In this document: positions 28,661 through 55,146 of the stretch, piece by piece | Position numbering within the stretch: the first letter of the stretch is position 1 | Layout of the letters: each line of letters opens with the position of its first letter | DNA from: Escherichia phage St11Ph5 | Reading direction: 5' to 3' (one strand) | DNA length: 64,000 bases | Sequence record: NC_070873.1 | Made by a program: the position numbers and the translations under genes | Notes under the pieces: generated by a model | Database searches by the model: none | Told to the model about the DNA's origin: nothing | The model's input: only the letters and a program-made list of their open reading frames with translations

Positions 28661-31600
28661 TTAGTTAGTTAGGTTGAGCCATGGGTTCAGGGTATGGGCA
28701 CGTAAGCCTTGTCCTAAACCGAAGGAGTAACCGAGATTACCCTGTGCAGCAATGCTAAAGATGTTGTCCTGAATAGGAAGACCGACGTTACCAAACATGG
28801 TAGGAGTTGGAGCCAGCATAGCCATAGCAGCATGTACTGGGTTATTACGAATCATGGACACTGCAACTTTTGCAGAACGAATCTTAAAGTTGTAGAACCA
28901 CATTAAACCAACACTTTCCATATATCCACGGAAGCGTCCTGGTAAACGGTCATAGTTAATGAACTCTTCCGTTACACGTCCTAGTGCTTCTTCACGAGTC
29001 TTGCCTTTACGCTGGGTCAGTTCATCATAGATGATTGCTTTAGCGATAAAGTCAGAGTACTCAACTGTCTTCTGGATACCCTGGAAGAGGGCAGTATCCT
29101 TAGTGATAAGTGCATAACGCCCTGCGTTACGTACAGACTTAGGCAGCTTATCAGCCAGCTTATCCATGTATTCGTGAATCTTACCTTCAGTAATCAGGAT
29201 GTCATCACGCCCAATACCAGCATCTGCAATTGAAGAGAACTCACCAGCTTCTAACAGAGGCCAGATACTCAAACGTTTATGGCTATCCGTGATGGACTGA
29301 ATCTCAGCCTTAAGTTTACGAATCTGGTTCGGGTTGGTAGCTGCACGTAATTCTGCTTCTGCATCTACCTGGCGCAGACGAGATTTTAGGTACTGATTAA
29401 TCTCAGCAGTTTTCTGTGGAATGCTCTTAGCAATGTTCTTAACAGGTACACCACGAGCAACCATCTGGTAAAGGTTAGCCAGGAAGTTAACAGCAGGTAC
29501 AACTACTGACTTAACTACAATCAGAGTCTTAGCTTCTTTAACTAAGTTCTGAACCAGATTCTCACCACCCATTACATACTTATAAGCACGGTTGCCAAAT
29601 ACACCCAGCATAGCTTTCTTGAAGGTATCCAGTGTTTCTGGGGACCAACGAGAATTACCAGACCAGGCATCACCAACAGAAGCTGCACGATAACCAAGAG
29701 CATCATTGAGCATGTCACGACGTACCCATAACTCACCCGGACCAAACAGACTTTCTGCTTTCTGACGAGTTTCACTGTTCATCAGCTTAAGTGCATCAGC
29801 AGTTACTGGGTCCAGTTTAGAACCAAGAAGGTTAACGTACTGGGACTTATTAGAGGCAGACATCTTAATATCGTTCTCATACATGCTATGCAGATTCTCA
29901 ATAAGCATGTCGTTGAAACGCTGAGCCTTAGCCTCTTCCACCTGACGTCCACGCCATACACCAATCGCACGAGCAAGATGGTTCTCACCTTCGATGTGCT
30001 TCAGCATATTAGGGTCAATGGATTGCTCGTAAGCAACCACATTACCATTGGCATCATATACAGGCAGCAATGGTTCATTACCACGTTCACCGCGAGCCAG
30101 TGCTTTAGTAACACGGTCCACGGAAGGCTTGTCAGTGATACGACCAGCTACCATGGTTCCCATAGTAAAGCCTGTACCAAGGTCTACGCCACCAGCAGTA
30201 TTGCGAACGTTCTGCAGGATACCCTGTGAGAATGGAGCCTGTGCCTGTACTGGTGCAAAGTAGTAGCTACGTGCTGGCCCACGATTAGCAGAGCTACCCT
30301 GATAAGTGCCCAGTCGTACATAGGATTTCTCAATCAAATCAGCAAACTGACTATCTTCAGCAACAATCAGGTTAACACCCTGTTTAGTCTCACCAGGGAT
30401 ATATCCTTTGTACTGGTTCAAGGTTGCACGACTATCAGACTTAGCTTTAGCCATTTCGTCTTTACGCTGACCAACCAGGTAAGAAGTAGCAAAGTCCATA
30501 CCTTCAATTTCTGTCTGAGCCAGTGAAGATAACATCTCACGGTCAGTCTTATTCATTGCTTCCAGTGCATACAGAGTAATCAGTTTATCCAGCTGAGCTA
30601 CATCTACAACAGAACGTGTAGTCTTACGTTCGCCCAGCAATCGAGAAATTGCAGTAGCATTACGCAGCAGGTTATTACCAACAGTACCATTAATCATGTA
30701 CTGAGCCAGTTGCTTAGATTTACGGTTAATCAAAGACCAGTTACGTCCGGCTTGTTTCTGCAAATCTGCTTCCAGTTTATTAACCTCACGGTCAACAATC
30801 TTCTGGTCAGTTAGCAAGTCACGGATTTCAGCCAAAGACATAGTGTCACGCAGAACAGCTAAGTCAGTTTTACCCATACCGGTATGCATTGCTTTCCACT
30901 CCTCATTAGTCAGCTTACGGCTGAACTTAGATGCGATAGTGGTAGGTAAATGTTCACGGAACTGTTGACGGTCAGCCTGTACCTGTGCACGTACTGCTTT
31001 AATCAAATCATACACAGAAGCATTGCTCTTAGTACGTCCGATTATGTCATTAACCAGGTCATGGAAAGGTTGCCATACTTTACCCTGGTTCATTGCAGCC
31101 ATAACACCTTCAGCTACGATTGAACCATTCTTCTCTGTAGCAATAGCAGCTATCAGTTGTGCAGCATGAGCAGCACCTTTGACCAATGGGTTCTTGGTAT
31201 TAGCCGCAACTTCACGAGCACCTTCCAAAGCACGGGTAGACAGCACATCAATAGAATCCACCAGATACTGGTTAGCACGGTCGATAGCATTACCAGTAGG
31301 AGTAGCAACGGAATCATAGAAGGATTCTGCATTAAGACTGGTCTGCATGATTGTCTGAGCCAGTGCATCCATACCTTCCTGTACGTTAGTGGCTTTAGTA
31401 TCACCTGCAACACGAGCATTCAGACTAGCCATTGCAGCAGTACCGATGTTAGTCAGCATTGCGTCAACAGTATTGCCAGATTTCTTATCTGCTTTCATAA
31501 CAGGAATATCAGCCAGCACCTTACGTACTTCTTCACTTACCATTGCCAGACCAACAAAGGTAGGCAGTAAGGAAGAACGACCATGTGCATCAAACTCAAT

Positions 31601-34600
31601 GTTGTTAGCACCCATGATGGTATCGAACTTCTGCTGTGCATAGTAACGGTCAGCAGGGTTAGTACTATCTGGGTCAGCCATGAATACTTCGACGGTCAGG
31701 TTCTTAGTAACATGTGTGTAGTATTCCTGTGCACGAGCCAGGGCAGCTGGGTTAATAGCAGCCTCAGTAGCTAGTGCAGCAACAATGTTAGTGAAGAGAC
31801 GCTGTTCCTGCATATTCATGGTGAAGCCATGGGCCTGAACATCACGGGTTACTTTGGTTGCATTCACTACTGCATCAGAGAACTTACCTTTGCGAATTAC
31901 TTGCTGTACTGGTTCTGAACCAATGTAGTTAGTAATTAGCTTATCGAAGGTTTTCCCTAATTCTTCCAGACGGGTATTGTTACCATATGCTTTGTTATGG
32001 AACAGGGTAGTGTCTTTGGCTACAGTAGCAGTAGGAGCTTGTCCACGCATTACTACAGCAGAGTTAAACAGTAAGCCAGAGAACATATCATCTGCATTAG
32101 CCGGAGCTTTCTTACGTCCGAATACCAGACGCTTGATTGCTTCATATACAGCCTGAACCATCGTTTTAAGTGCAGTGGTTTTCTTCTGCTTATTAATAAG
32201 TTCACGGTTAGTTAATCCCCAAGCCATGTACTCATTCAGTGCAGCAGCTTTAGCCATTGCTGGTTCAATGAAGCCATTAGACAAGTGACCATTAATGGTA
32301 TTCAGTGCATCAGCATATGCTTCACGTACTGCCGGAGATTCATCATAAACATCCAGAGCACGGAACTGGTTCATCAGGTCTTCAATATTCTGGACAGCTT
32401 CATTAGGAGTACCTTCGTAGTGAGCCAGTACAGATTCAAAAGTAGAAGCATGTACCAATTCATGAACCAGAGTCTCTAATGAAGGAGTAACTAAGTAGAT
32501 GGTCTTATCTTCAAAGTTAGTCCAGCCATATGCATTACCTGCTTCAGCAGCCTCAATATCTTCTGGTGCTGGGCGAGTAATATTCTTCTCAATAGCATAG
32601 GCATCCAGTTGAGAAGGTGTACCATAAACAACCTTATAGTCTTTAGCAGCAAGGGATTTCTGTATTTCTTTCAATACTTCTTGCTGTTCAGGAGACATCT
32701 CTTTAGCCAATTTAGTAATAGCAGTATTAGACAGCAGACGTACACCAGATTTCAGTACACGACCAACTTGTTCCATTGCTGGTACTTCTTTCACTGGTTC
32801 TGCTTTAGCAGCACGTACTGCATCACGACGCTTGTTTAATTCAGCATCAAACAGTTCGTTCAGCTTAGCTACTTGCTGGTCTACAGTTAAACCTTCCAGA
32901 GAGATTTTACCGTTGTTCACATAAGGAGCACCAACAGCAGCCATCTGGTCAACAGTGACCTGTACCTGGTCCATTACCTTGTGACGAATATCTACACCCA
33001 GGGCAATGTTACGCAGATTACGCTCAATTAATGCAATACCAGAATCTTTAATCATAGAAATTTTATAATCTCTATCACCATCTACTCTGGTAATCTGAGC
33101 ACGTTGATCAAAGTCTAAAGCAGACTTCGCAATAGCATCTATTGCTGCATCGGACAGCTTATTTAAATCAACATTCTTAGCAAACTTAGAGAAAGACTCA
33201 TAAACATTCTTGATAGGGTTACCCTGCCAGGAAGTATATACAGCCTCGTTAGCTTTACGGCTTGCATCAGTAATGTCATTGATACCAATGTTCATACCAT
33301 CAAAGATTTTCAGGGTATTCTTTGGAGCACCTTTCATAGTAGAAAGAGTCTGCATCATCATGCCATCACCAGTACCGATGGTCATAAATGGAATACCTGC
33401 TACACCTGCCTGCGAAGGAGCATAGATGCTCATTGGCACACGCATACGGTCATCTAAGTTAGTAGCCAGTACTTGGTTAGCAACATCAGTATTTTCACTA
33501 CCTGCAATGTAGAAAGTCTGGGAACCAGTCTCAATCATTGGAGCCAGTGGTGCTAAGCTATTCTGAATTTCATTCAGTTCTTTCTGTGTTAAGAAATCAC
33601 CTTTCTTCCATGTTGGGTCTTTTTCTTTTTCTGCCAGTTTAGCCTGTACTGCCTGTTGGAACATATCCTGCAATACCAGAGATTGAATCTGGGTAGCCTT
33701 CTGTAAGTTCTCCGTAGATTGCATCAACCCTTCACCAACAGTGAATCGGATACTTTGTCTCATAGGCTCAACAAAGAAGTGCAGCATATTCTCTTGTAAG
33801 TTCTTAAGAGCATCCCCGGATACGGTAAACTCCCGGGGATCTAACTTACCAGTCAGAACACCATCTACTTCTTTAATGAATAACTTACCTTTACGCTTAG
33901 CTGGAATATTTCCAGTCAATGCTTTCATAGAAGTAAGGAAGGTATCCAGCATAGCCTGAGCATCGGCTTCAGATGCAGCCTCCTTACCAAACATCGCCAT
34001 AGCTGGGGAAATGTTAGGGTCAACAGCACGGGCTTTTAGAACGTCGCTTAAGCGTTCATAGATGGTATCAGTAATTGCACTTACCATCTTGCCAGCAATA
34101 CCACGTGCGCCAGAACCATAGATGGTAATGGTTAGTGGGTTTTTAGCGATACCACGTTTCAAGTCCAGAGTACCGTCTTCCTTAAGATTGAAGTCTTTAA
34201 TGAACAAATCCATTAGCTTCTGGAGATGGTCCATCTGGTTTATAACAGGAATATTTTTACTATAAGCATTGCGTAATTCATTTAGATAGAATTGCAGACT
34301 ATTAGTAGATGCTTCATACAGGTCAACACTGTCTTCCTGAGTATGATGCTCATTCATGGTCTTACCGGCTTTACCGAAGAACAAACCACCTTTGGCAGTA
34401 TTCTTAATCCAGTTTGGAGTGAACTTACCACCGGTCATTAATACCATTGCGTTGATTGGACCGTTGGTTACACCATCGGCTTCAACGTACAGTGGGGTAT
34501 TAAAGTTGGCACGGTCATCACTGTTAAGATAACGGGCATATTCCATAAGAGCCATAAGAGCTACAAAGGATTTATCATTACCAAGAGATGTTCTCAGAAT

Positions 34601-37600
34601 ATCCACTGCATCAGTAGGTAAGTATCCAGACTTATCAAACTCAACCATCATATCTACAGCAGGTTTCAGCTTACCTTCCAGAGCTTTGGTAAGTTCTTCT
34701 GACATAGTTTCACGAGTCATTTTATGAACTTTGATACCTAATGCCTGAGCCAGTCCAAGCTGGAAGCCTGAGAAGTCTTCATTGTTCTGATTCGATAAAT
34801 CCAGAGTAGCTTTAGTAGGTAAGATAGCCTCACGAACCAACTTAGCTGATTGAGGATTATATTTACCTAACATCTGCATACGACCAACACGGGTCATATT
34901 GTAAGCATAGTGAATAGGCACAGTGGAAATGTCTTCACTCTGTGCTCTCACCTGTTCAATAACAGAGAACAATTGGTTGTAAGAATCCTCTACTGAACGG
35001 TTTTTACCTTCCAGAGATTTAGCATGGTTCTTATTAAGTAAATCCTTATCCAGAGTACCAGCACCCATCAATTCGAGGATACGGTCTTTACCTAAAGCCT
35101 CATAGAACTGAACCATTGGGGTATGCACAAAGAACTCTGTAGCCTGCTCTGCTTTAAGGGCAGCTTTCTGTTCCGGAGTATTACGGACAGCAGGGTTACG
35201 TAACTGAGTATGAGCCACGGGAGGAATGTCATCACCGAAATACAGTTTCTCTACTGGTTCTACGAGGACAGCTTCCTCGATAGCAGTAGGGAATTTGTTA
35301 ATAGCGTCGGTATCATCCAGCTTCTCAATGGTATACAGACCAATAGTCTTATTGGATTCTGGGTCAATTTCAGACACATCCAGCATGGACTCTTTAACTT
35401 CACCCATTTCAATAAGGGAAGATAGAATCTCTGTAGCCATTGCCATCGGGATACCTTTGGTATAACCCAGTGGTGCATCAGCATTACGATTAAGTCCCCA
35501 GTAAGATTCAATCTTTTGAGCCAGTGAGTTAGTAGCTTCTACTAAGGTTTGTGCATTCTCAAATTCTGCGAGGATACCTTCTGGTAACAAGGAAGCATTT
35601 ACACCAGTAATTGCAGCCACATCCTGCATGTCTTTAATAGCAGCATTCTGTGTAGCAGTAAGTCGCCATTGCAGACCAGCAAGTACAGCAGTCTCTAACA
35701 ATTGGTCATTGAACTTAAAGGTGTCTCCGTCTTTCTCTACGATATTAAGTAACTTACCACCTACCCAACGGTTAGCTTCAGTACCTTCTGCAAAACGTTT
35801 ACCAACGTTCTTGTTAGCAAGGAATTTAGTCAGACGGTCAGACAAAGTAGTCTTCAGAGTTTCACCAAACTCAAATAAGTCCTGGTAACGCTTAATCACA
35901 TCACTTGTGAGAGCGTTATTTTCTTTTTGAGTAAATGCTTCAAAACGAGCAGCAGAAGACAGTGCTTTATTAACATCAGTTAAAGGAGATTCAGAACCAA
36001 TGGTACGGGACTTAGGTTCTTCTGGCAGACTAAATGCTTTAAGGAACTGGTTCGGTGTCTTTTCATTGTTATAGACAGGGAACACTGCTTCCATTCCCGA
36101 TAGAGGTTTACCACCAACAGTATAGTCTGCTTTCAGTTGAGCCAGTGATACTTCTTCTTTCTCAACGTTATTGGTATTAAGCCCAGATGTATCTACACCA
36201 ATCTGAATCAGTGCATTGTTTGCTTCTACGAATGATTGAACAGTATTGAATTGTTCAGCAGTTAGCTTCTGATTATCAAACAATTGCAGAGATACGAACG
36301 GTTGCTCACTACCTTTATAGAAAGTAGAACGTACAGCACCAGTATCCAGAGACATGTCACGATAACCATCATGACCAAATACGTCAGACAGACTGATATG
36401 GTCGCCATTGGAACCAACAACAGTACCATCAGCGAATAGCCATGGACTATCTCTACGGTCACCATACTTATTAAGAGTATCTTGTGAAATAGTATTCTCT
36501 TTCACATAAGAATCTCTTTCAGATTCAGTAGGCTGTTCAACGATATCCTGTTTTTCAGACTGGTTCTCAGGTTCTTTTACGGTTTGTGGTTTAGACTCTT
36601 TAATAGTAGGTTCTGTTTTAACAGCTTCACTAACAGAGGGTTTAGTCTGTACAGTAGGGGTAACTGGTTCCTGTTTTGTAACAGGAGCTTCATCAACCTG
36701 ATTCACTGGTTCATTAGTCTGTTGGGATTGAGCAGCATCAAGATTGCCCTGACGGAACTCTTTAACTACCTGGGCAGCAGGCTTGTTCAGACGTGAATCC
36801 AATGGGGTAACTTTCACATGAGAAACATTAAGCTCCGGGTAAGCCGTAGCAAGTGCGTTAGCAATATCAGCTACGGTCTTGGCTTCCAGTCCTACTTGCT
36901 GGGCAAACTTAACAGACTTGGTATCATACGGATTGACACCGAGGCCAGTACGACTACGTACCCATTCACGCGAGGGAGTAAGAGCCTGATAATGGACAGA
37001 CTTATTCTTATCCGCATTCCCAGAAATCAGATGCTCATTCAACGCTCCGACCTTATTCTGCATGTGCTGGGCGAACTTCATAAAGTCGTCGAGATAAGCG
37101 GAAGCCAAATCGAAGTTACCAGAGTTGTACGCAGAACGAATGCGTTTAGCATGTTGCAACGCAGAGTACTGGCCTTCATTAGAACGAGACTCGTCGGTTT
37201 TAATCTGTTTACTAACAATGTCTTGAGGACGTAAGCCTAGTTCTTCTGCTTTAGCATCAAATTCTCGTGCTCCTTGTAATAGAGCAGCAGCAGATTGCAG
37301 GGCAGCACGCTGACGATTCCCCAGTGTAATCTTACCTTCACTTGCATGTTTCAGAACCATGTTCACTGAATCTGCATCCAGCACTTCTGGAGACATATCA
37401 GCAGCCATAGCAATGTTGTTTGCCTGAGCTTGGTTAGCTTCTTCAGTAGCTTTCAGTTTACCTGCTTCAGCCTGTTCCTGAATCATAGAATGGATGGCAC
37501 GGAATGCACGGAGTACCTTCGGTGTATTCTGAACATTAGCCATCAGGCCAGAGAATTGGTCAACAATATTAGCAGCAGGAGAACCCTGTTCCAGATTAGC

Positions 37601-39466
37601 CAGAGCACCAGGGTCACGGTTAATGAAGCTATCCATAGACATGATGTTGTCATACATCTGGATTGCAGCTTCCATTTGAACGTTAGGGTCTTCGGCAGTA
37701 TTAACCAGGTCAGCCATCTTCTGAATAGCTTCAACACGGTTAGTGGAACCAGAAACAGCTTCACGGATTGCCGGGCTAGCTTGTTCCAGTTCTACTGGGT
37801 CAAACTTCATTGCCTGAGTTAAGTCAGCAGCATACTGAGTAGCAGCAGCTTTCTCTTCAGGAGAAATATCCATTGCATCTACTGCTTCCTGAACAGTTGC
37901 TTGAGCCTGTTCTGCCTGAGCAGTAGCTTCTTGTGCAGCAGCATTAACTGTAGCGTCTGATACAGGGGATGCTTGTTCATTTCGCTTAGCAACTTCTTCG
38001 CCACGCTGAACCAGGATGTTAGTAATAGGAGAAGCAGCTTTTGCTAATGCATTACCAGCCAGAGAAGCAGCAGCCATGGTAGTACGTACAGCAGGACCAA
38101 CGGCAGCACCAGCAGCTTTAACAGTTGCACCAGGAGCTTGAGCAACTCCAGCAGAACCGAAGCCATACAATGCACCAAGCCCGGTTTGTTCACCAACACC
38201 TTTAAGCAAATCACGCTTAGCATCTACATTACCTTGAATTGCCTTGTTCTGTGCAAGCTGACTTGTACCAGACTGGATACCTTCTTCTACAGTCTCACGC
38301 AGCATGTTAGAACCAGCACCAGCCAGTGAACCTACCTTAAGTGGATTAAGTTCAAACTTGGATACCAGTGGACCAGTAAGAGCAGCAACCGGAGCAGTTA
38401 AGCCAGCAGCAGTAATACCTGTTTCAGATGCAGTTTGACGACGTGCTTCTTCAGGAGATAAACCATCTTTAATATGCTGTTGGTATACAGGGGATTTAGC
38501 AGCCAGTTCACTAAACGGCATTTCCATAATTTCATTAGCAGTTTGTTGGTATGCACCACCAGCTTCCATACCACCAATTGCTATAGCAGGTGCAGCAACA
38601 CGACCAGTAGCCAATGCAACCTGTGCAGGACGTGAACCTAATTCAGCAGCTAAGGTAATACCCTTAACAGCTTTATCCCCACCTACCATTACTTTACCGA
38701 GTGCGGATACACCACGAATCAATGGACCACCGGTAAAGAGAGAACCAACACCCTCAGCCAGACCATCAGTAGCAGCCATGCCATTGGACAAAGTGTTAAC
38801 AACAGAATCGTAAGCATCACGTCCAATGCGAGACAGGGAAGCAACGAGTTCGCTTTCTCCTTTAGCAATATCCTGCTTATAGAGTTTCTCATTCTCCTGT
38901 GCAGATATTACGTTCTGGTTCTGTACTACATTACGACGAGCATTCAATGCATCAGACTGTAGGTTATGTACACCTTTATTCAACCAGTCAAGACCGGAAG
39001 CAATGGATGCCCCGGCATTATCATTGACCAAGCCTGTGCCAAGAGCAGCAATGCCCCCAAGGGTATTAGCAACACCAAGACCAACACCAGAAAGGGTATC
39101 ACCAAGTGCTTCACCATATGTACGACTCTTAGTTAAATCACGACGAACAGCATTAGCTGCATTGACACGAGCATTGAGAATGTCCATTCCTTGCTCATTG
39201 CCGTACTTGTTTATGATTTCAAGAGGAGAGGCGTTAGTAAAATCTGCCTGAATAGAACCTGGGTCAAATGCACCAGCACCTAAGTTACCAGTACGACCTG
39301 CCTGCAATTGGTAGGCATTCTGAGGAGTTAATTGGAAAGGGTTTTGCCCTTGTTCAGCTTGTTTCCGAGAGGTTGCAGTAGAGACATCGACTTGCTTAGC
39401 AGTAGTGATGCTGTCTGCGAAACCTGCCAGACGGTCAAATGTTGACATAGCATGATTCCTGTTCAA
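28661..39466 (-). CDS. virion-encapsidated RNA polymerase (N4 vRNAP-like giant protein)
   Basis: Single 3601-aa ORF; size and genome position match N4 gp50; central segment ITIYGSGARG compatible with single-subunit RNAP motif B. Confidence 0.8.
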   Translation of the reverse strand: MNRNHAMSTFDRLAGFADSITTAKQVDVSTATSRKQAEQGQNPFQLTPQNAYQLQAGRTGNLGAGAFDPGSIQADFTNASPLEIINKYGNEQGMDILNARVNAANAVRRDLTKSRTYGEALGDTLSGVGLGVANTLGGIAALGTGLVNDNAGASIASGLDWLNKGVHNLQSDALNARRNVVQNQNVISAQENEKLYKQDIAKGESELVASLSRIGRDAYDSVVNTLSNGMAATDGLAEGVGSLFTGGPLIRGVSALGKVMVGGDKAVKGITLAAELGSRPAQVALATGRVAAPAIAIGGMEAGGAYQQTANEIMEMPFSELAAKSPVYQQHIKDGLSPEEARRQTASETGITAAGLTAPVAALTGPLVSKFELNPLKVGSLAGAGSNMLRETVEEGIQSGTSQLAQNKAIQGNVDAKRDLLKGVGEQTGLGALYGFGSAGVAQAPGATVKAAGAAVGPAVRTTMAAASLAGNALAKAASPITNILVQRGEEVAKRNEQASPVSDATVNAAAQEATAQAEQAQATVQEAVDAMDISPEEKAAATQYAADLTQAMKFDPVELEQASPAIREAVSGSTNRVEAIQKMADLVNTAEDPNVQMEAAIQMYDNIMSMDSFINRDPGALANLEQGSPAANIVDQFSGLMANVQNTPKVLRAFRAIHSMIQEQAEAGKLKATEEANQAQANNIAMAADMSPEVLDADSVNMVLKHASEGKITLGNRQRAALQSAAALLQGAREFDAKAEELGLRPQDIVSKQIKTDESRSNEGQYSALQHAKRIRSAYNSGNFDLASAYLDDFMKFAQHMQNKVGALNEHLISGNADKNKSVHYQALTPSREWVRSRTGLGVNPYDTKSVKFAQQVGLEAKTVADIANALATAYPELNVSHVKVTPLDSRLNKPAAQVVKEFRQGNLDAAQSQQTNEPVNQVDEAPVTKQEPVTPTVQTKPSVSEAVKTEPTIKESKPQTVKEPENQSEKQDIVEQPTESERDSYVKENTISQDTLNKYGDRRDSPWLFADGTVVGSNGDHISLSDVFGHDGYRDMSLDTGAVRSTFYKGSEQPFVSLQLFDNQKLTAEQFNTVQSFVEANNALIQIGVDTSGLNTNNVEKEEVSLAQLKADYTVGGKPLSGMEAVFPVYNNEKTPNQFLKAFSLPEEPKSRTIGSESPLTDVNKALSSAARFEAFTQKENNALTSDVIKRYQDLFEFGETLKTTLSDRLTKFLANKNVGKRFAEGTEANRWVGGKLLNIVEKDGDTFKFNDQLLETAVLAGLQWRLTATQNAAIKDMQDVAAITGVNASLLPEGILAEFENAQTLVEATNSLAQKIESYWGLNRNADAPLGYTKGIPMAMATEILSSLIEMGEVKESMLDVSEIDPESNKTIGLYTIEKLDDTDAINKFPTAIEEAVLVEPVEKLYFGDDIPPVAHTQLRNPAVRNTPEQKAALKAEQATEFFVHTPMVQFYEALGKDRILELMGAGTLDKDLLNKNHAKSLEGKNRSVEDSYNQLFSVIEQVRAQSEDISTVPIHYAYNMTRVGRMQMLGKYNPQSAKLVREAILPTKATLDLSNQNNEDFSGFQLGLAQALGIKVHKMTRETMSEELTKALEGKLKPAVDMMVEFDKSGYLPTDAVDILRTSLGNDKSFVALMALMEYARYLNSDDRANFNTPLYVEADGVTNGPINAMVLMTGGKFTPNWIKNTAKGGLFFGKAGKTMNEHHTQEDSVDLYEASTNSLQFYLNELRNAYSKNIPVINQMDHLQKLMDLFIKDFNLKEDGTLDLKRGIAKNPLTITIYGSGARGIAGKMVSAITDTIYERLSDVLKARAVDPNISPAMAMFGKEAASEADAQAMLDTFLTSMKALTGNIPAKRKGKLFIKEVDGVLTGKLDPREFTVSGDALKNLQENMLHFFVEPMRQSIRFTVGEGLMQSTENLQKATQIQSLVLQDMFQQAVQAKLAEKEKDPTWKKGDFLTQKELNEIQNSLAPLAPMIETGSQTFYIAGSENTDVANQVLATNLDDRMRVPMSIYAPSQAGVAGIPFMTIGTGDGMMMQTLSTMKGAPKNTLKIFDGMNIGINDITDASRKANEAVYTSWQGNPIKNVYESFSKFAKNVDLNKLSDAAIDAIAKSALDFDQRAQITRVDGDRDYKISMIKDSGIALIERNLRNIALGVDIRHKVMDQVQVTVDQMAAVGAPYVNNGKISLEGLTVDQQVAKLNELFDAELNKRRDAVRAAKAEPVKEVPAMEQVGRVLKSGVRLLSNTAITKLAKEMSPEQQEVLKEIQKSLAAKDYKVVYGTPSQLDAYAIEKNITRPAPEDIEAAEAGNAYGWTNFEDKTIYLVTPSLETLVHELVHASTFESVLAHYEGTPNEAVQNIEDLMNQFRALDVYDESPAVREAYADALNTINGHLSNGFIEPAMAKAAALNEYMAWGLTNRELINKQKKTTALKTMVQAVYEAIKRLVFGRKKAPANADDMFSGLLFNSAVVMRGQAPTATVAKDTTLFHNKAYGNNTRLEELGKTFDKLITNYIGSEPVQQVIRKGKFSDAVVNATKVTRDVQAHGFTMNMQEQRLFTNIVAALATEAAINPAALARAQEYYTHVTKNLTVEVFMADPDSTNPADRYYAQQKFDTIMGANNIEFDAHGRSSLLPTFVGLAMVSEEVRKVLADIPVMKADKKSGNTVDAMLTNIGTAAMASLNARVAGDTKATNVQEGMDALAQTIMQTSLNAESFYDSVATPTGNAIDRANQYLVDSIDVLSTRALEGAREVAANTKNPLVKGAAHAAQLIAAIATEKNGSIVAEGVMAAMNQGKVWQPFHDLVNDIIGRTKSNASVYDLIKAVRAQVQADRQQFREHLPTTIASKFSRKLTNEEWKAMHTGMGKTDLAVLRDTMSLAEIRDLLTDQKIVDREVNKLEADLQKQAGRNWSLINRKSKQLAQYMINGTVGNNLLRNATAISRLLGERKTTRSVVDVAQLDKLITLYALEAMNKTDREMLSSLAQTEIEGMDFATSYLVGQRKDEMAKAKSDSRATLNQYKGYIPGETKQGVNLIVAEDSQFADLIEKSYVRLGTYQGSSANRGPARSYYFAPVQAQAPFSQGILQNVRNTAGGVDLGTGFTMGTMVAGRITDKPSVDRVTKALARGERGNEPLLPVYDANGNVVAYEQSIDPNMLKHIEGENHLARAIGVWRGRQVEEAKAQRFNDMLIENLHSMYENDIKMSASNKSQYVNLLGSKLDPVTADALKLMNSETRQKAESLFGPGELWVRRDMLNDALGYRAASVGDAWSGNSRWSPETLDTFKKAMLGVFGNRAYKYVMGGENLVQNLVKEAKTLIVVKSVVVPAVNFLANLYQMVARGVPVKNIAKSIPQKTAEINQYLKSRLRQVDAEAELRAATNPNQIRKLKAEIQSITDSHKRLSIWPLLEAGEFSSIADAGIGRDDILITEGKIHEYMDKLADKLPKSVRNAGRYALITKDTALFQGIQKTVEYSDFIAKAIIYDELTQRKGKTREEALGRVTEEFINYDRLPGRFRGYMESVGLMWFYNFKIRSAKVAVSMIRNNPVHAAMAMLAPTPTMFGNVGLPIQDNIFSIAAQGNLGYSFGLGQGLRAHTLNPWLNLTN

Positions 39467-49062: not shown

Positions 49063-51333
49063 TTATAAGTTCATACCAAGAGCCGATGCTGGGTCTTGGC
49101 TAGGGTCATAAAACTGGGAACTAAGTGAATAAGTCGGGTCTTGCTGTGCAGCTAAGTCACGTTCCTGTAAAGAGTTCCCGTTAGTCAAAGTGTTATATCC
49201 GACAGCAGCAGATATATTGGGGGTAGTTTCACCTTCTTTAGTAGGTGTTGTCAACGCCTTAGTTATTTGAAGGTTCTGGTTTCCTTGAGACTGTGCTTTT
49301 TGTTTCTCCATATCACGAGCATGTTTAGTACCAGATTCCTGTTCCAGATAATCCAGGTCTTTAAGATCACCACTAGAAATAGCTTCTTTAGCTTTAGCAT
49401 TATTGAGTGCAATCTTACTTTTCAACTCTTCATTCTCAAGCTGTGCTTTCTGAATTGCCAATTGCTTAAGCTGTTCTTCCATAGGGTCTGGCTGTGGTTT
49501 CCATGTACGTAATTCATGAGCAAGGTCCGGCATACGTTTAAGTTCTGCAATCTTAGCTACAAGAGATAACGTAATAGTCTGGTCAACTGTATTACCTAAT
49601 GTTTGAACCATGAAGCTTAAATCCTGAGACTTCTGGTTATCAATTTCAGCAGTATTAATATCAACCTCAATATCGAAGTTACCTTTAAGGTCTTCACGAT
49701 TAATTTCTACATACTGCTCATTAGTAATACGTACCACTTCCTTCTCAGATAAGAACACAGCATTCATTGCACAAATCTTAGTACCAATGTCTGCCATACC
49801 CTTAGCTAATCGACGAAGGATTGCCATCTCACGTTTGGATGCTGCATCAAGTGCACCACGAATACCAGCAGCCACATCTCCATACGCTGCACCAGTTACG
49901 CCACCAGAAAATGCTTTAACACCTGTTAGTGCTTCTGCTTCCTGATTCTGCATCTGAGTCATTACTATTGCCGACTGAGGTAGTTCCGGGAACTTATGCT
50001 CCATAATGGCCTGACTAGGGTTACCCTGCATTGGGTTGTATTCATAGTCTTGCCCGTCATCATATCGACGACGGTTCAGGGTATCTAACATCCCCTTGGG
50101 GTAACCACGCTGTCCATTTGCACTTCGACCTAACAGGTCAATCATCCCACGCATAGTTGCACCAAGAATTGCTTGGTTATCTCCTAACAGTTCAGCATCA
50201 GCCTCACCATAGAGTTCACGTTTACGAGGCATATAGGGAACAACTACCAAGGGCAACTTACCATCCGGGAATGGGTTCTTCTCCATACGAATAAGAGTAG
50301 AGCCAATCCAGGTAGCGACAATTGGTTCCAGTGAACCATCATCGTTGATGTCATAGAATCCCCAGTATTCATAAGCGACTACTTTCTTACGAAGTGCATC
50401 CTTAAACTGGAAGTCACCAGGAGTTTTACTTTCATGGTCTGGGTCAGTCATAGGACTGGAACTTTCCCAGTCAATCTTATCCAGGTTATGGTAACGGTCT
50501 TTGTTCTTCATAAGGTCTGCTTTGCACGTCTCAAATGAGATAACTGCATAAAGAGCCTTATCCAAATCACCATTACAGCTTGGGTCAATAACTACGTTAT
50601 TTGGGTTAAGCATTTCAACAGTAGGTCTGTTAACCAGTGCTTTCTCTACTTCTACATCAGTAACACCAGTCTGAATTGCATAGGTAGCTTCTCCAGTTTC
50701 ATTGAAGTAGTTAACAGCTTCCTTGATATCTTCCGGCATTGTTTCATCATACTCACGGGGATTCTCTGCCTGAAGCTGTAGAGCCTGCTGAAGAATATCT
50801 GCTTGTTCCTGGTTCTCAATTGGATACAACTGGAAGACTGGAGTTTCTGTTTTAATCTTAACAGTCTTACGTTCCCAACCGATACGAGCAATACCAGTAC
50901 CATCATCTACGACACTGTGTACGTAATCATCCACCAATTTTACTTTATTAAGCTGGGTACGGAATTGGTAGTTAAGAACTAGCTCATTCTGACGTGCAGC
51001 TAACTCATCTTCAAAAGTTACAGGGGTTACCTTAAAGAGTTTATTGGATGAGAGGAATGGTTCAGACAATGGTGCATAACGCCATTCTGCCTGACGGCGA
51101 ACCAGTCTAGGTTGGACTTGTGAACGACCTTTAACCTTTGGGGGTTTAGCCTTACCCTTAACTTCCATCAGGTCATTCCACTCACGAATCTGTGCCATGA
51201 TTGCATCGTGGGCAGGTTTAGCTGATTCCAAATCGCCTTTCAGTAATTGGATACTTGGTTCCTTCTTCCAGTCCGTTAACTTCTCTGATTGAGCCGGGTC
51301 TGGTAAAGGCTTAAAAGTGTCTTGGTGTTCCAT
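49063..51333 (-). CDS. portal protein (N4 gp59-like)
   Basis: 756 aa; position upstream of scaffold/capsid; assignment by synteny. Confidence 0.5.
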
Positions 51334-51335
51334 AG

Positions 51336-51842
51336 TTATTCCTGTTCAAAAAGTTTACGGTCAGCCTGAATCTGTTTACCCAACTCAATTAGTTGGCTGT
51401 CACGGAGTCTAACAGTTGCCCGGAGTTCTTCAACCAAACGTCTGCCTTCTTCAAGACTGTTGTCGAGTCTGGCTGCATGGCTTGCAAGACTTCTGCACTC
51501 AAAGGTTCCGGATTCGGCTTGACGTTTATATACCGATGCTCGTCTTTCAGACTGTTGCATCCGGCTGTCGTAATCACTGCTAACGCGAGCAAGCTCGCTT
51601 GCGTAATTACTCTCAGCCGTCTGCAACCGGGAAGTGAGTAACCCGACTTCATAACTATGGTTTCTTTGGAGAGCATTGTATTTGTCCTGTAATTTTTGTG
51701 TTGCCTTTTGGTCTTCGACCTTTTGGGCATCCCACTTCTTTTGAACAGTAGACTGTCCATTGGAGTTACCCCAAAAGTAAATGGTGGCCCCAAGGACCAC
51801 CACCAGAAGATAAGGCCAACCTTTAGAGATTAGCATCTTCAT
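51336..51842 (-). CDS. Rz-like i-spanin
   Basis: N-terminal [23 protein letters not shown] then coiled-coil-like periplasmic domain; contains embedded lipoprotein ORF in +1 frame; ORF 51336..51863, start trimmed to internal Met. Confidence 0.55.
51389..51652 (-). CDS. Rz1-like o-spanin lipoprotein (embedded in Rz)
   Basis: Signal peptide with lipobox-like TTAGC then Pro-rich NVKPNPEP; entirely inside Rz in another frame; start Met uncertain. Confidence 0.45.
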   Translation of the reverse strand: MKSGYSLPGCRRLRVITQASLLALAVITTAGCNSLKDEHRYINVKPNPEPLSAEVLQAMQPDSTTVLKKADVWLKNSGQLLDSVTAN

Positions 51843-52458
51843 TACATGCCTCCAGTGGCACATTGCCTATTCGGTTAGCTACCCAACCATACGTAAAGTC
51901 TGGCATGTTTAATGAGGTGTAGTGGTTCAGTTGTTTGGCATCAAGTAACTTAATCATTACCTGACATGCTGCAACTTTGCCTCGTTTTTTCTGTAATGCT
52001 TTATATGCATTAACAGTACTTGTACCGACTTTACCATCAACCTGTATTTTAGGGTAGTCTTTGCCGTCACGGGACATTTCATTAAGAGATAACTGCAACC
52101 ACTTAGCAGGACGGGTTACACCAGTGTTAACACCAGCATCAACCAGCTTGTGTGTTACAGCAGGAGATATATCAGCAAAGGCTACGAAGTTAGGCTTAAG
52201 TACGTAGTCATCAATGTATATCTCAGCAGCCATCTCTTTAGACAAACCTTTCATAGAACCATCCCAACCATACTCAGTAGCCAGAACTTCTTTATGAGAT
52301 TTAGCTACCGATTGGGTAATTCCATGGTTAGTTTCCCCACCTGGGTCACGAGGATTGTTTACGTAACCCCCTTCCATATAGAACACTGCCCCCAGGATAG
52401 CAGCGACAACTCCTCCCACTGCACCACCTTTCGCAGCAAGTTTTTGTTTAGCTTTCAT
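51823..52458 (-). CDS. endolysin, GH108-type muramidase with N-terminal SAR-like segment
   Basis: GGYVNNPRDPGGETNHGIT matches GH108 N-terminal signature; N-terminal Gly/Ala-rich weakly hydrophobic AAKGGAVGGVVAAILGAVFY. Confidence 0.6.
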   Translation of the reverse strand: MKAKQKLAAKGGAVGGVVAAILGAVFYMEGGYVNNPRDPGGETNHGITQSVAKSHKEVLATEYGWDGSMKGLSKEMAAEIYIDDYVLKPNFVAFADISPAVTHKLVDAGVNTGVTRPAKWLQLSLNEMSRDGKDYPKIQVDGKVGTSTVNAYKALQKKRGKVAACQVMIKLLDAKQLNHYTSLNMPDFTYGWVANRIGNVPLEACNEDANL

Positions 52459-52708
52459 GTGAATCTTCCTTTGGTCGGAAACGTATTAATCTGCCTATGA
52501 TATTTAAGGCAAACAGTGCGATTGCAATATTGGAACCATGAGGAATGTCTTCCAGGATGTGTCGAGGTAATCCTGTCAGCATTGGTTGGATAATATCTAT
52601 GGCAGAAAACATAATTAACCCAAGCGTACTAATCTGAATGGATGCCCACTTCCAGCATCTTTTCCAGTTAGGTACTAACTCTACCTTTCTATTTAACCTG
52701 CGAACCAT
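52448..52708 (-). CDS. holin-like membrane protein
   Basis: ORF 52448..52774; from internal Met about 86 aa with two hydrophobic helices; immediately upstream of endolysin. Confidence 0.4.
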   Translation of the reverse strand: MVRRLNRKVELVPNWKRCWKWASIQISTLGLIMFSAIDIIQPMLTGLPRHILEDIPHGSNIAIALFALNIIGRLIRFRPKEDSHES

Positions 52709-53022
52709 GCGAATATCTCCCGTCTTGCAGCAGCCAATACACCAATAATTGCACCTGCCCCAGCCCATACCCACTTACCGAAAATCCCTGCACCAACAAC
52801 TTTATGCTTAATGGTGATGAACTCTTCAATAGTAGGTTCATTCTTAGCTAAGCTATCCTCCACATTCTTTAGTCTATTGCCTATGTCATTGATTGAATCT
52901 CGTAGTTCTACTAGAGTCTCCTCTAGTTTCTCACGGTCCTGCCTTTCCCTTGTCTGGTTCTCAAACAGAGTCTTCAATCGTTCCTCCAACCTGACTAGGA
53001 GTAGTTCACCCGATTCATTCAT
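52693..53022 (-). CDS. membrane protein with coiled-coil N-terminus (holin/antiholin candidate)
   Basis: 109 aa; C-terminal TM VVGAGIFGKWVWAGAGAIIGVLAAA. Confidence 0.4.
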   Translation of the reverse strand: MNESGELLLVRLEERLKTLFENQTRERQDREKLEETLVELRDSINDIGNRLKNVEDSLAKNEPTIEEFITIKHKVVGAGIFGKWVWAGAGAIIGVLAAARREIFAWFAG

Positions 53023-53194
53023 AATATTACCGTAGTTGTGTAGTTAGAATCCCCAATAGGGTCATATCATAAGATGACTCATAGATAATACTTAGTATGA
53101 TGGAGTACATCCAGACATAGTGTCTGCCTTAGACATTATTGTAAGAAGTGCAGGTACAGTGAGAGAATGGGGAATGCAAACAGTAAACTCTATA

Positions 53195-53225
53195 TAGGAA
53201 AAGCCCCCTTAATTGGGGGCTTTTA
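53195..53225 (-). terminator. Rho-independent terminator
   Basis: Stem AAGCCCCC / GGGGGCTT, loop TTAATT; T-tracts on both sides. Confidence 0.45.
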
Positions 53226-53238
53226 GTAATGTCACATG

Positions 53239-55146
53239 TTATACAAAGTAAACCAATGTACCTATGATACGTGAATTATTCCCCAGTGCTGCAACAGAAC
53301 CAGAAATACCCACTGCTGAGGCTGTAGATGCAGAGATCATGATATTGGAGTTCAGTGCTTCTGCTCGGATATACAAGCCATAAACAGGTAAGGCAAGTTC
53401 AGCATAGTAGCCTACACTACCTGTACCTGTGGTATCACCACACGCAAAAGGCAGACCTAAAATTGCTGACTGATTCCCTGTACCAATAGTATTGATATGA
53501 ATATCAAACTCTACTGTTACCTTACGACCTTCTTTACGGTACTTACCCTTCTGAATGTTATAAGTAGCATTACCACCTACAGAAGGGGTCCATGTACCTT
53601 CTATAACATCAGAGGATGTCCATGCATTTGGTGATAATGGTGGGTTATTGACAACAGTGAATTTAGCACCAGCACCTGAGTTGTAGGGGATGAATACAGG
53701 ATTAATACGAGCAAAGGTGTTATTAACCTGTTCATCAAGGTTGTTCATATCAATCAGAACCTGTCCATTAGCAAATGTACTAACAGCAATATCCTCTACT
53801 ACCCAATCACGTAGCTTAACGTTACCATCCATCATTCCGATGATGCGACCATTATTCCCTATCTTCTCACTATGCATGTTGATGTAACAGTTACGGATTC
53901 GTACACTCTGTGGGAAAAGGTAGTTTGCAGGATTAGTCTTGTCACTAAGTACTGAAACCATCCAAGGTCGTACAGCTGTACTCACCTCTGTGTAGTATCC
54001 ATCAATAATAGCACCGTGAGCATTTGGCCCAAGAAGAATACCTCCAGTACAGTGGTGTGCGTTACCTCCAATTACACGGCACATTGTAGAGTTGATATAT
54101 GCAAAGTAACCTAAGTCTTGGTTATCGTATGCACCCATTGAGCAATCACGTATGGTAAATCGTGAGTTACCGCCATCATAGGCACTACCATCAGTCTTCT
54201 TGCCAAGGAGAGCTATGAAACTACCAGTTGCTACTGTACTGAAGTAGGTATGTTTCTCACAACACTCAATGATCCCATCCCAGTTCTCATACTGAGAATA
54301 GATGTCATAGGTTGCAGAGTTACCATAGTCCATAAAGATGCAGTATCTGATTCTAGGTGTGAATACGAAGGACTTAATGAAAATACCGAAACCTGCTTGC
54401 ACACCACCAGTGAATCGCAGACCCTCTATAGTGTATTCAGACTGATAGAAGTTATCAGCAGTAGGTGCATCTTCTGGAGTTGGGTCACCTAAGTACATTG
54501 CTGCACCAGTACCTGAGTAGTCCAGAGTAGCTGACTGAAAACCATATACTGCTACAGGGCGTGTAAAGTTTATACCAGTAGTATACTTATAATGACCAGC
54601 AGGAAAGATAACAGAAATGGGTGCAGAGTATTTGGCTCGGGAGTTTACCCAAGCAACCATAGCCTGAATAGCAGCAGTGTCATCGGTAATCCCATCACCT
54701 ACTGCACCAAAGTCCTTCAGACTTACCCAATCACCTAATGCAGCCTGTACAGTGCGAGCAACTTCACCAACACGTCCGGTAATGTGACCAACCTTACTAG
54801 AGCCAGTGTTAGAAGCCAGTTCGTCATATACTGCTGTAATGGCTTCATTGACTCGTACAGCAATGTCATTTGGTGCAGGAAGTAGACTAACGGTAATACC
54901 CCCTGGGTTATAGGTTAATTGGTCACCATTTACATTAGCAATGGTTGCCCCGGAGGGGAGAGTAGGTAAAGTCCATATCTTCTTAGCATTACGATCGAAG
55001 AGTATAGTCTTATCATCTAGCAATGTATTAGTATTCGTACTGAGAATAACTTTACCTTCTGCTACGTTACATGCACGAGCAATGGCTTGTATATTGGTAA
55101 GAATACCCGTAGAGCCTTTACCACCTTGAGAGAACATCTCGTTCAT
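53239..55146 (-). CDS. tailspike/tail fibre with pectate-lyase-like beta-helix
   Basis: LKDFGAVGDGITDDTAAIQA motif typical of right-handed beta-helix depolymerase domains; 635 aa. Confidence 0.55.
   Translation of the reverse strand: MNEMFSQGGKGSTGILTNIQAIARACNVAEGKVILSTNTNTLLDDKTILFDRNAKKIWTLPTLPSGATIANVNGDQLTYNPGGITVSLLPAPNDIAVRVNEAITAVYDELASNTGSSKVGHITGRVGEVARTVQAALGDWVSLKDFGAVGDGITDDTAAIQAMVAWVNSRAKYSAPISVIFPAGHYKYTTGINFTRPVAVYGFQSATLDYSGTGAAMYLGDPTPEDAPTADNFYQSEYTIEGLRFTGGVQAGFGIFIKSFVFTPRIRYCIFMDYGNSATYDIYSQYENWDGIIECCEKHTYFSTVATGSFIALLGKKTDGSAYDGGNSRFTIRDCSMGAYDNQDLGYFAYINSTMCRVIGGNAHHCTGGILLGPNAHGAIIDGYYTEVSTAVRPWMVSVLSDKTNPANYLFPQSVRIRNCYINMHSEKIGNNGRIIGMMDGNVKLRDWVVEDIAVSTFANGQVLIDMNNLDEQVNNTFARINPVFIPYNSGAGAKFTVVNNPPLSPNAWTSSDVIEGTWTPSVGGNATYNIQKGKYRKEGRKVTVEFDIHINTIGTGNQSAILGLPFACGDTTGTGSVGYYAELALPVYGLYIRAEALNSNIMISASTASAVGISGSVAALGNNSRIIGTLVYFV

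Follow-up and report, generated by a model that had tools for sequence, protein, structure and literature searches.

The best-described counterpart of the locus analyzed here is the lysis cassette of phage N4. When N4 gp60-63 are expressed from a plasmid, E. coli lyses in about 25 min (bioRxiv 10.1101/2025.11.12.688109, Awuah et al.). According to the same preprint, gp63 on its own is lethal to cells, and it complements a defect in S21, the pinholin of phage 21, though not one in the lambda holin S; plasmid-driven lysis is delayed by deletion of gp63 and unchanged by deletion of gp62, a dispensable, late-triggering large-hole holin. The endolysin gp61 associates with the membrane, functions together with a pinholin and causes leaky lysis independently of a holin, and changes that bring negative charge into its signal-arrest-release (SAR) segment, such as G12E, lead to rapid lysis (bioRxiv 10.1101/2025.11.12.688109). 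Functionally, gp63 and gp61 stand in for S21 and R21, respectively, and gp60 together with gp60a complements lambda Rz/Rz1 (bioRxiv 10.1101/2025.11.12.688109). Muramidase activity on peptidoglycan has been shown for gp61, a protein described in Stojkovic & Rothman-Denes 2007.

Results

Our window, the whole 64,000-nucleotide stretch of Escherichia phage St11Ph5 DNA under analysis (NC_070873.1), has an N4-type layout that includes a 3601-aa vRNAP ORF. Its open reading frames place five lysis genes on the minus strand between 51336 and 53022. The features are as follows.

51336-51842, minus strand: gp60-like i-spanin, 168 aa; phrog_6197 'Rz-like spanin' (E=8e-78); 100% identical to ATS92535.1
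51389-51676, minus strand: gp60a-like o-spanin, wholly within the i-spanin gene in the +1 frame; 95-aa form 100% identical to ATZ35296.1
51557-51568, minus strand: o-spanin lipobox T-A-G-C, Cys codon at 51557-51559
51823-52458, minus strand: gp61-like endolysin, 211 aa, predicted GH108 plus PG_binding_3; 100% identical to 'N-acetylmuramidase' ATS92536.1
52375-52440, minus strand: SAR-like membrane segment, endolysin codons 7-28 (LAAKGGAVGGVVAAILGAVFYM); EGGY codons 52363-52374 directly after
52448-52708, minus strand: gp62-like putative holin (DUF7940), 86 aa, its ATG downstream of GGAG; 100% identical to ATS92537.1
52693-53022, minus strand: gp63-like protein, predicted pinholin, 109 aa; phrog_5211 (E=4.5e-50); 100% identical to ATS92538.1
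52975-52987, minus strand: possible internal start of the gp63-like gene; GGAGG 52983-52987, 5-nt spacer, TTG 52975-52977 (codon 16)

Neighboring genes share 16, 11 and 20 nt in turn, and the portal gene starts 2 nt beyond the last cassette stop. All five proteins are exact GenBank copies, 100% identical to the annotated proteins of Escherichia phage St11Ph5 (MG208881), where they are named Rz/RzI spanin (two entries), N-acetylmuramidase, putative holin and hypothetical protein. The cassette is already known, its genes having been deposited and annotated in 2018. The window DNA is 96.6% identical to that of Gamaleyavirus ShWW44, which carries the same annotations, and the identity of 95-97% to ShWW44, Bp4, ECBP1 and others goes with a shared gene order and shared annotations. 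Gene order and relative reading frames are kept across 20 related loci in which identity of the i-spanin falls to as little as 37%.

Identity to N4 gp63, gp62, gp61, gp60 and gp60a amounts to 67, 63, 66, 54 and 61%, respectively, with order and frames alike. An earlier, sequence-only reading of this DNA had described overlapping minus-strand genes forming a lysis cassette; the overlaps and the N4 homology agree with it on both points, and every sequence string that it quoted was found. From homology to N4, these are very probably the late lysis genes of a G7C-like, N4-related E. coli podophage of the genus Gamaleyavirus (Schitoviridae), most likely working as the N4 cassette does; the N4 functions come from a preprint and are transferred to the present cassette across 54-67% identity. 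A scan of 51000-53400 for sigma-70 promoters and terminators found no promoter-like site on the minus strand, with counts at the level of shuffled sequence, and an Rfam search of the whole window gave no match.

The gp63-like protein combines an N-terminal heptad-repeat (coiled-coil) region, a 'LIN' segment (EPTIEEFITIKHK) and a Gly/Ala-rich C-terminal transmembrane domain (TMD). Within residues 31-58 the heptad a/d positions are 100% hydrophobic, compared with 5% elsewhere, a contrast reached by none of 500 shuffles. The single hydrophobic segment is C-terminal, with its hydropathy peak at residues 80-98. This product had been read as a coiled-coil membrane protein, and rightly so. Its topology is ambiguous (RR follows the TMD), and predictors disagree on that of N4 gp63 too, according to its authors (bioRxiv 10.1101/2025.11.12.688109). 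Residues 63-108 are nearly identical to N4 gp63, and four of the five LIN positions are unchanged (S62 is replaced by N). At the DNA level, the region encoding LIN and TMD is the most conserved part of the cassette, 85% identical to N4 as against 60-66% in the flanks. A second coding or RNA function as the source of this identity was rejected: third positions remain variable here (0.32-0.37), so that constraint on the protein explains the figure.

Hydropathy places two helices in the gp62-like protein, at about residues 22-40 and 59-77, and the protein matches Pfam DUF7940 (PF25612; 54 bits, E=2.6e-14, gathering cut-off 27 bits) and the PHROG family phrog_1356 'holin' (E=5e-30), all of which fits its earlier description as a two-helix holin-like protein. 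From N4 we predict that the pinholin is the coiled-coil gp63-like protein and not this two-helix protein. The sequence-only reading had suggested pinholin-type lysis control; homology to N4 upholds that suggestion and refines it, the two-helix protein becoming the candidate late, large-hole holin.

The roles might conceivably be reversed, with the two-helix protein as the true timing holin and the gp63-like protein as an antiholin or regulator, or with no part in lysis. The gp62-like protein does have the classic class II look with its two TMDs, and public annotations call gp62 homologues 'holin', whereas gp63 homologues appear in many Gamaleyavirus records as 'tail length tape-measure protein' or 'hypothetical'. 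Roles could also have shifted within the genus, since G7C lacks lysis inhibition. We nevertheless regard this assignment as quite unlikely. In N4 the loss of gp62 is neutral, it is gp63 whose deletion delays plasmid-driven lysis, and gp63 by itself is lethal and makes good a pinholin defect; moreover, conservation in the cassette is highest precisely in the gp63 TMD and LIN segment. The tape-measure name was rejected, as the gp63-like protein, 109 aa long and with a TMD, matches no Pfam or NCBIfam model that would support it. The gp63 homologues that carry these labels in Gamaleyavirus records call for re-annotation as candidate pinholins.

For N4 gp62 a dual-start motif has been proposed, giving a longer isoform from an upstream start. 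The corresponding frame is open here from GTG 52774 or ATG 52768. A Shine-Dalgarno (SD) scan found none before either codon, a stop breaks the extension in three related loci (L012-L014), and synonymous-site diversity of the gp63 codons that it overlaps (0.325 vs 0.323) reveals no added constraint. A long gp62 isoform is therefore not supported for this cassette.

A second start is also conceivable for the gp63-like gene. The ATG at 53022, which opens the 109-aa form, lacks an SD in our scan, and TTG codon 16, behind a strong GGAGG, falls opposite Met17, the alternative start of N4 gp63; its predicted product of 94 aa is the form given by many public gene calls. As a family feature this start was rejected, G7C-type loci having CTG without an SD, L011 TTC and L012 CTT, and because it is not conserved in the family its use is doubtful. 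Translation from both ATG 53022 and TTG 52977 in the St11Ph5/Bp4-type clade, with the 109- and 94-aa products timing lysis as a holin/antiholin-like pair, is a speculative and unlikely arrangement. The close relative G7C has been reported to lack the lysis inhibition to which the 'LIN domain' of N4 gp63 is linked (bioRxiv 10.1101/2025.11.12.688109), so that regulation of the present cassette may differ from that in N4. If true, a dual gp63 start might help to explain why lysis inhibition is absent from G7C-type phages despite the retained 'LIN' segment.

The endolysin matches Pfam GH108 (PF05838) over residues 24-113 with 71.9 bits (E=6e-20; gathering cut-off 21.2 bits) and PG_binding_3 with 31.9 bits (E=1.5e-7; cut-off 24.6 bits). 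It also matches a PHROG endolysin family (E=2e-41) and the GH108 chain 6v3z (Sen1395) in the PDB (E=7e-27); a search of NCBIfam gave only a sub-threshold hit, to 'holin-associated N-acetylmuramidase' (57 bits, cut-off 240). The GH108 signature noted earlier, GGYVNNPRDPGGETNHGIT, occupies residues 30-48, and E29-G-G-Y32 aligns with the EGGY of N4 gp61, the founder of GH108 (PF05838), and of 6v3z. The Glu of EGGY is described by Pfam as essential in this family. These matches predict that the protein is a GH108 N-acetylmuramidase, as the signature had implied.

Between K10 and E29 the endolysin contains 18 uncharged residues, GGAVGGVVAAILGAVFYM, preceded by K3, K5 and K10. Nine of the 18 are Gly or Ala, which bears out the reported Gly/Ala-rich segment ahead of the enzymatic domain, and the segment is conserved in 20 of 20 related loci. 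Hydrophobicity was discarded as a test of SAR character because it did not discriminate: the segment's Kyte-Doolittle 19-mer mean is 1.78 (1.46-1.71 for the other cassette TMDs), and its crude Hessa-scale sums are +1.3 (17-mer) and +4.1 (19-mer), with similar values for the other TMDs, all of them marginal. SAR behavior is instead predicted from homology to N4 gp61 (66% identity), whose G12 aligns with G15 here; given the same gene order and frames, this analogy favors the SAR-like N-terminus proposed from the DNA letters.

Instead of a releasable SAR segment, the endolysin N-terminus could be a conventional Sec signal peptide that is cleaved off, or a signal anchor that holds stably; a hydrophobicity no lower than that of the other cassette TMDs would be compatible with either. 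We consider this very improbable. A polar c-region is missing, since the hydrophobic stretch runs directly into EGGY: M28 closes the uncharged stretch, EGGY begins at E29, and the Pfam GH108 match already starts at residue 24. The segment is kept in all relatives, and its N4 homologue acts as a SAR, being membrane-associated, compatible with a pinholin, prone to leaky holin-independent lysis and converted to rapid lysis by inserted charges. A cleaved signal peptide is what the sequence-only reading had named as evidence against its proposal, and the segment does not look like one.

The i-spanin starts at ATG 51842, with GGAGG 6 nt upstream, and not at 51863 as in the ORF list; the curated 2018 spanin database (PMC6139136) gives the matching start for Bp4 and ECBP1. 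An N-terminal TMD (roughly residues 9-25) is followed by a helical domain in the periplasm, where C115 is the only Cys. A crude heptad test was weak, 50 of 500 shuffles reaching the observed contrast; the i-spanins of Bp4 and G7C are predicted to be about 93% helical (PMC6139136). The PHROG match and 54% identity to N4 gp60 leave its identification as Rz-like in place.

The o-spanin comprises 95 aa if read from ATG 51676, which has an AGGA Shine-Dalgarno, or 87 aa from ATG 51652 (51389-51652), the form curated for Bp4 and G7C (PMC6139136). The upstream Met is conserved in Gamaleyavirus-type loci with the signal-peptide type of the window, and the second Met is missing from two loci (L019 and L011). 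Of the 56 aa of the mature protein, 4 are Pro, and the lipobox Cys is its only Cys. Over its full length the o-spanin is 61% identical to N4 gp60a, with 44 of 56 residues matching in the mature part.

The TTAGC and NVKPNPEP strings singled out earlier lie in this +1-frame ORF within the i-spanin. The lipobox TAGC fails the strict consensus [LVI][ASTVI][GAS]C, having Thr at -3, and passes a relaxed PROSITE-type pattern, so that 'lipobox-like' was apt in the relaxed sense alone; the label 'Pro-rich' applies locally but not to the mature protein as a whole. The lipobox Cys is invariant in 20 loci, where relatives have VGC, LGC or AGC, and deviant lipoboxes are documented among o-spanins. We predict from the sequence that the lipoprotein signal is usable, and an ORF without a valid lipobox, which would have counted against the earlier proposal, is not what we find.

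The embedded frame is really coding. At third codon positions of the i-spanin, diversity stands at 0.39 and 0.37 ahead of the stretch that encodes the mature o-spanin, drops to 0.12 over that stretch and rises to 0.30 beyond it; this roughly threefold fall in synonymous-site diversity shows that the embedded frame is under coding constraint. The out-of-frame lipoprotein ORF claimed from the letters thus gains support from an open frame and a conserved Cys in 20 loci as well as from reduced third-position diversity, and the near-identical spanin pairs of Bp4, ECBP1 and G7C are curated as embedded two-component spanins (PMC6139136). To the notion that the ORF is a chance open frame and that the outer membrane is disrupted in some other way, suggested by the failed strict consensus and by the lack of any matching Pfam, PHROG or NCBIfam model, we give practically no credence, as the frame stays open with its Cys while i-spanin identity drops to 37%, third-position diversity dips only across the mature o-spanin, conservation of the mature o-spanin in the most distant locus, L020, equals or exceeds that of the i-spanin frame that it overlaps (33/56 vs 29/56), N4 gp60 and gp60a complement lambda Rz/Rz1 (bioRxiv 10.1101/2025.11.12.688109), and the pair is curated as a two-component spanin (PMC6139136). 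Dual-coding constraint on an embedded spanin can be seen cleanly in this cassette.

Discussion

The gene anatomy, family membership, N4 homology and conservation of the cassette, and the dual coding of its spanin overlap, are direct observations. From the N4 experiments and general lysis biology we infer every functional step in the following sequence. The endolysin would be exported by Sec and tethered to the inner membrane through its weakly hydrophobic Gly/Ala-rich N-terminal helix, and would be inactive in that state since the catalytic glutamate of EGGY, E29, lies right next to the membrane segment. Meanwhile the gp63-like protein, with a cytoplasmic coiled coil and a C-terminal TMD, would build up in the membrane until, at a set time, its small holes collapse the membrane potential. 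Depolarization would free the SAR helix, allowing the muramidase to refold and degrade peptidoglycan all around the cell. The gp62-like two-TMD holin may serve as a back-up that triggers late and makes large holes. Once the wall is lost, a complex of the i-spanin, anchored in the inner membrane, and the o-spanin, an outer-membrane lipoprotein, would disrupt the outer membrane; Asn at +2 of the o-spanin predicts its sorting to the outer membrane by Lol.

The cassettes of other Gamaleyavirus phages (G7C, Bp4, ECBP1 and ShWW44) show no difference of substance from that of St11Ph5. All five genes recur in N4, in identical order and with matching overlaps, and there too the o-spanin gene is nested in frame +1. 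Conservation between the two phages covers the SAR segment, the EGGY motif, the TMD and LIN segment of gp63 and the 56 aa of the mature o-spanin; divergence is seen in the cytoplasmic part of gp63 and in the signal peptide of the o-spanin. As its lipobox N4 has IVGC and St11Ph5 TAGC, the internal gp63 start is ATG (Met17) in the former and TTG in the latter, and LIN position S62 of N4 is Asn in St11Ph5.

The endolysin shares its GH108 plus PG_binding_3 architecture with Salmonella Sen1395 and TtsA-type proteins (6v3z, 6v40) and with Neisseria NMB1012 (2ikb). These solved structures have the motif EGGYVN..D.GG in common with it (E=7e-27 and 5e-20), and the region of their chains that aligns to the endolysin begins at EGGY.

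As in lambda Rz/Rz1, the o-spanin gene lies fully inside the i-spanin gene in the +1 frame, here from 0.33-0.37 L to 0.89 L; the i-spanin likewise belongs to the type II membrane proteins, and the o-spanin is a predicted outer-membrane lipoprotein. The lambda pair nevertheless belongs to a different spanin family, with only weak PHROG cross-matches. Lambda Rz1 has 10 Pro in 40 aa, as against 4 in the 56 aa of the mature o-spanin here, and, unlike in lambda, the sole periplasmic Cys sits in the i-spanin.

Finally, phage 21 S21 68/R21, and P1 Lyz, follow the same logic of a tethered endolysin freed by small-hole depolarization, with no sequence relationship between phage 21 S21/R21 and the proteins of this cassette. 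S21 has two TMDs, the first of which (TMD1) can exit the membrane; the enzymes R21 and Lyz are of the T4-lysozyme type (GH24). The pinholin candidate described here has one C-terminal TMD and a coiled coil, and the endolysin that it would release belongs to GH108. Because it possesses only one hydrophobic segment, the gp63-like protein is a functional analogue of the S21-type pinholin and not a member of that type.

Organization of the lysis cassette

Four consecutive, overlapping ORFs and a nested fifth occupy the minus strand from 53022 to 51336.

52693-53022, minus strand: gp63-like ORF, 109 aa
52448-52708, minus strand: gp62-like ORF, 86 aa, with GGAG ahead of its ATG (the mechanical ORF reaches a GTG at 52774)
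51823-52458, minus strand: endolysin (gp61-like) ORF, 211 aa
51336-51842, minus strand: i-spanin (gp60-like) ORF, 168 aa, with GGAGG ahead of its ATG (the mechanical ORF runs from 51863)
51389-51676 (95 aa) or 51389-51652 (87 aa), minus strand: o-spanin (gp60a-like) ORF, in the +1 frame inside the i-spanin ORF
49063-51333: portal gene, starting two bases past the last cassette stop

Successive ORFs overlap by 16, 11 and 20 nt, and the adopted starts are backed by inspection for Shine-Dalgarno (SD) sequences. All peptide strings quoted in the sequence-only reading were found in the sequence. A long form of gp62 proposed for N4 found no support here: it has no SD and is interrupted by a stop in three related loci (L012-L014). 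No extra synonymous constraint was found on the gp63 codons that it would overlap.

Family assignments and public annotation

The 211-aa protein matched Pfam GH108 at 71.9 bits (cut-off 21.2) and carries a PG_binding_3 domain. It also aligned with the solved GH108 muramidases 6v3z (E=7e-27) and 6v40 (E=5e-20), including the motif EGGYVN.P.D.GG. The 86-aa protein belongs to DUF7940 (54 bits, cut-off 27). PHROGs returned holin (E=5e-30), endolysin (E=2e-41) and Rz-like spanin (E=8e-78) families, and placed the 109-aa protein in phrog_5211 (E=4.5e-50), whose function is unknown there. The sole NCBIfam match on the cassette, 'holin-associated N-acetylmuramidase', was sub-threshold.

All five proteins are present verbatim in the GenBank entries for St11Ph5 (ATS92535-38 and ATZ35296), a G7C-like phage described in 2018 (PMC5764931). 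Megablast matched 86 phage records, and in 56 the match extended over 80% or more of the region. The top record, Gamaleyavirus vB_EcoP_ShWW44 (96.6% identity), labels the five genes Rz-like spanin, Rz/RzI spanin, N-acetylmuramidase, holin and hypothetical protein, and phage Bp4 names its cassette genes after the N4 proteins gp60-gp63 that they resemble. In several GenBank and UniRef entries, gp63-like homologues go under the name 'tail length tape-measure protein', a widespread mis-annotation. A 2.76-Mb contig labelled Enterococcus faecium carries near-identical gp63-like (96-97%) and gp62-like (same 90% cluster) proteins, probably through contamination or chimeric assembly.

The endolysin N terminus

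Between K10 and E29 lie 18 uncharged residues (GGAVGGVVAAILGAVFYM), half of them Gly or Ala, bearing out the Gly/Ala-rich segment that had been noticed ahead of the GH108 signature. The segment directly abuts the catalytic EGGY motif and thus leaves no space for a signal-peptidase c-region, which argues against a cleaved signal peptide, the alternative that the sequence-only reading had raised against itself. All 20 related loci have kept the segment, and G15 aligns with N4 G12, where a change to Glu causes rapid lysis. Hydrophobicity scales did not separate the segment from the other transmembrane domains (TMDs) of the cassette, so the predicted signal-arrest-release (SAR) behaviour rests on homology rather than on calculation.

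The gp63-like protein

The coiled coil proposed for the 109-aa protein is well founded: in residues 31-58 the a/d heptad positions are 100% hydrophobic, versus 5% elsewhere, a contrast reached in 0 of 500 shuffles. Residues 80-98 form the sole hydrophobic segment, which is Gly/Ala-rich with small-xxx-small motifs. Positions S62, T65, I70, T71 and I72 of the LIN segment, linked to lysis inhibition in N4, correspond to N61, T64, I69, T70 and I71. The DNA encoding LIN and the TMD (52693-52839) is 85% identical to N4, versus 60-66% in the flanking cassette. Its third codon positions are still variable (0.32-0.37), which rules out a second code and points to constraint at the protein level.

The start of this gene is ambiguous, which is worth recording. 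No SD precedes the ATG at 53022; an internal TTG at 52977, aligned with the alternative Met17 of N4, has GGAGG five bases upstream, and the resulting 94-aa form is that of many automated public gene calls. The TTG is not conserved, being CTG without an SD in G7C-type loci, TTC in L011 and CTT in L012, and the residues ahead of it (LL.RLEER) are kept while their codons change synonymously. For these two reasons we retained the 109-aa form.

The embedded spanin

The o-spanin signal peptide ends in T-A-G-C, which fails the strict lipobox consensus at -3 but passes the relaxed PROSITE-type pattern; to that extent the embedded lipoprotein ORF stands as proposed. The Cys is invariant, other clades having VGC, LGC or AGC, and the Asn at +2 is compatible with outer-membrane sorting. 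Deviant lipoboxes in o-spanins are documented (PMC6139136); the non-canonical TAGC of the Gamaleyavirus clade is worth recording. The mature protein has 56 aa, as in N4. The database of PMC6139136 curates the Bp4, ECBP1, G7C and EC1-UPM pairs as embedded spanins, with the i-spanin start chosen here.

Dual coding was examined by aligning 19 distinct i-spanin genes codon by codon. At third codon positions, pairs of genes differed on average by 0.39 before the overlap, 0.37 over the o-spanin signal peptide, 0.12 over the mature part and 0.30 after it. The dip to 0.12 is the expected signature of a selected second reading frame.

Both o-spanin lengths are possible. The upstream Met (51676, SD AGGA) is conserved in Gamaleyavirus-type loci sharing this signal-peptide type and gives the 95-aa form of GenBank St11Ph5; L011 and the ECBP1 contig (L019) have lost the second Met (51652), and the spanin database lists 87 aa for Bp4 (PMC6139136).

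Mosaicism and flanking sequence

The cassette is mosaic. Relative to the G7C-type contigs (L004-L009), DNA identity is 97% for the i-spanin, 93-94% for the endolysin and 84-85% for the holin, only 59-63% for the N-terminal part of the gp63-like gene, and again 88-93% for LIN and the TMD.

Homology to all Gamaleyaviruses other than ShWW44 is lost at ~53126, 104 nt upstream of the gp63-like start (53023-53126). This break marks the boundary of the exchanged host-recognition module reported for St11Ph5 (PMC5764931). Exactly there lies a hairpin (53112-53126, CAGACA cta TGTCTG) whose 6-bp stem is closed by a 3-nt loop. Immediately upstream of the cassette, the tailspike gene (53239-55146, minus strand) is 99.8% identical to that of ShWW44, and megablast found no match to it in other phage records. 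Between its stop and the cassette, a perfect 10-nt inverted repeat, AAAAGCCCCC/GGGGGCTTTT (53199-53224), is terminator-like on both strands.

The remainder of the window follows the N4 layout, including a 3601-aa ORF (28661-39466, minus strand) for the giant virion RNA polymerase, hallmark of N4-like phages. A single tRNA-Ala gene (anticodon CGC) was found at 25908-25979 on the plus strand; the ShWW44 genome announcement likewise lists an alanine tRNA gene.

Comparison with phage N4

We retrieved the N4 region and aligned each cassette protein with its counterpart. Identity was 67% for gp63, 63% for gp62, 66% for gp61, 54% for gp60 and 61% for the embedded, unannotated gp60a. The genes and their annotation are already known, as are their spanin architecture and how the prototype works. 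In a 2025-26 preprint (10.1101/2025.11.12.688109), lysis assays with plasmids, complementation of lysogens and phage genetics established N4 gp61 as a SAR endolysin, a muramidase whose activity and association with the membrane had been shown in 2007; gp63 as a pinholin that kills cells immediately and complements S21, the pinholin of phage 21, but not the lambda holin S; gp62 as a late-triggering, dispensable large-hole holin; and gp60/gp60a as a functional embedded two-component spanin.

The proposal of a SAR endolysin and two membrane proteins under pinholin-type control agrees with these roles and, given the homology, we consider it correct. A single refinement applies: the pinholin candidate is the coiled-coil, single-TMD protein rather than the two-helix protein. 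By homology, the cassette is predicted to follow the N4 model. The muramidase would be exported by Sec and tethered through its SAR segment; triggering of the gp63-like pinholin would depolarise the membrane and free the SAR helix, allowing wall degradation; the gp62-like holin would act as a late back-up, and the i-spanin/o-spanin complex would disrupt the outer membrane. Because G7C, as the N4 authors remarked (10.1101/2025.11.12.688109), shows no lysis inhibition, the regulatory layer may differ in Gamaleyavirus from that of N4, despite the retained LIN segment.
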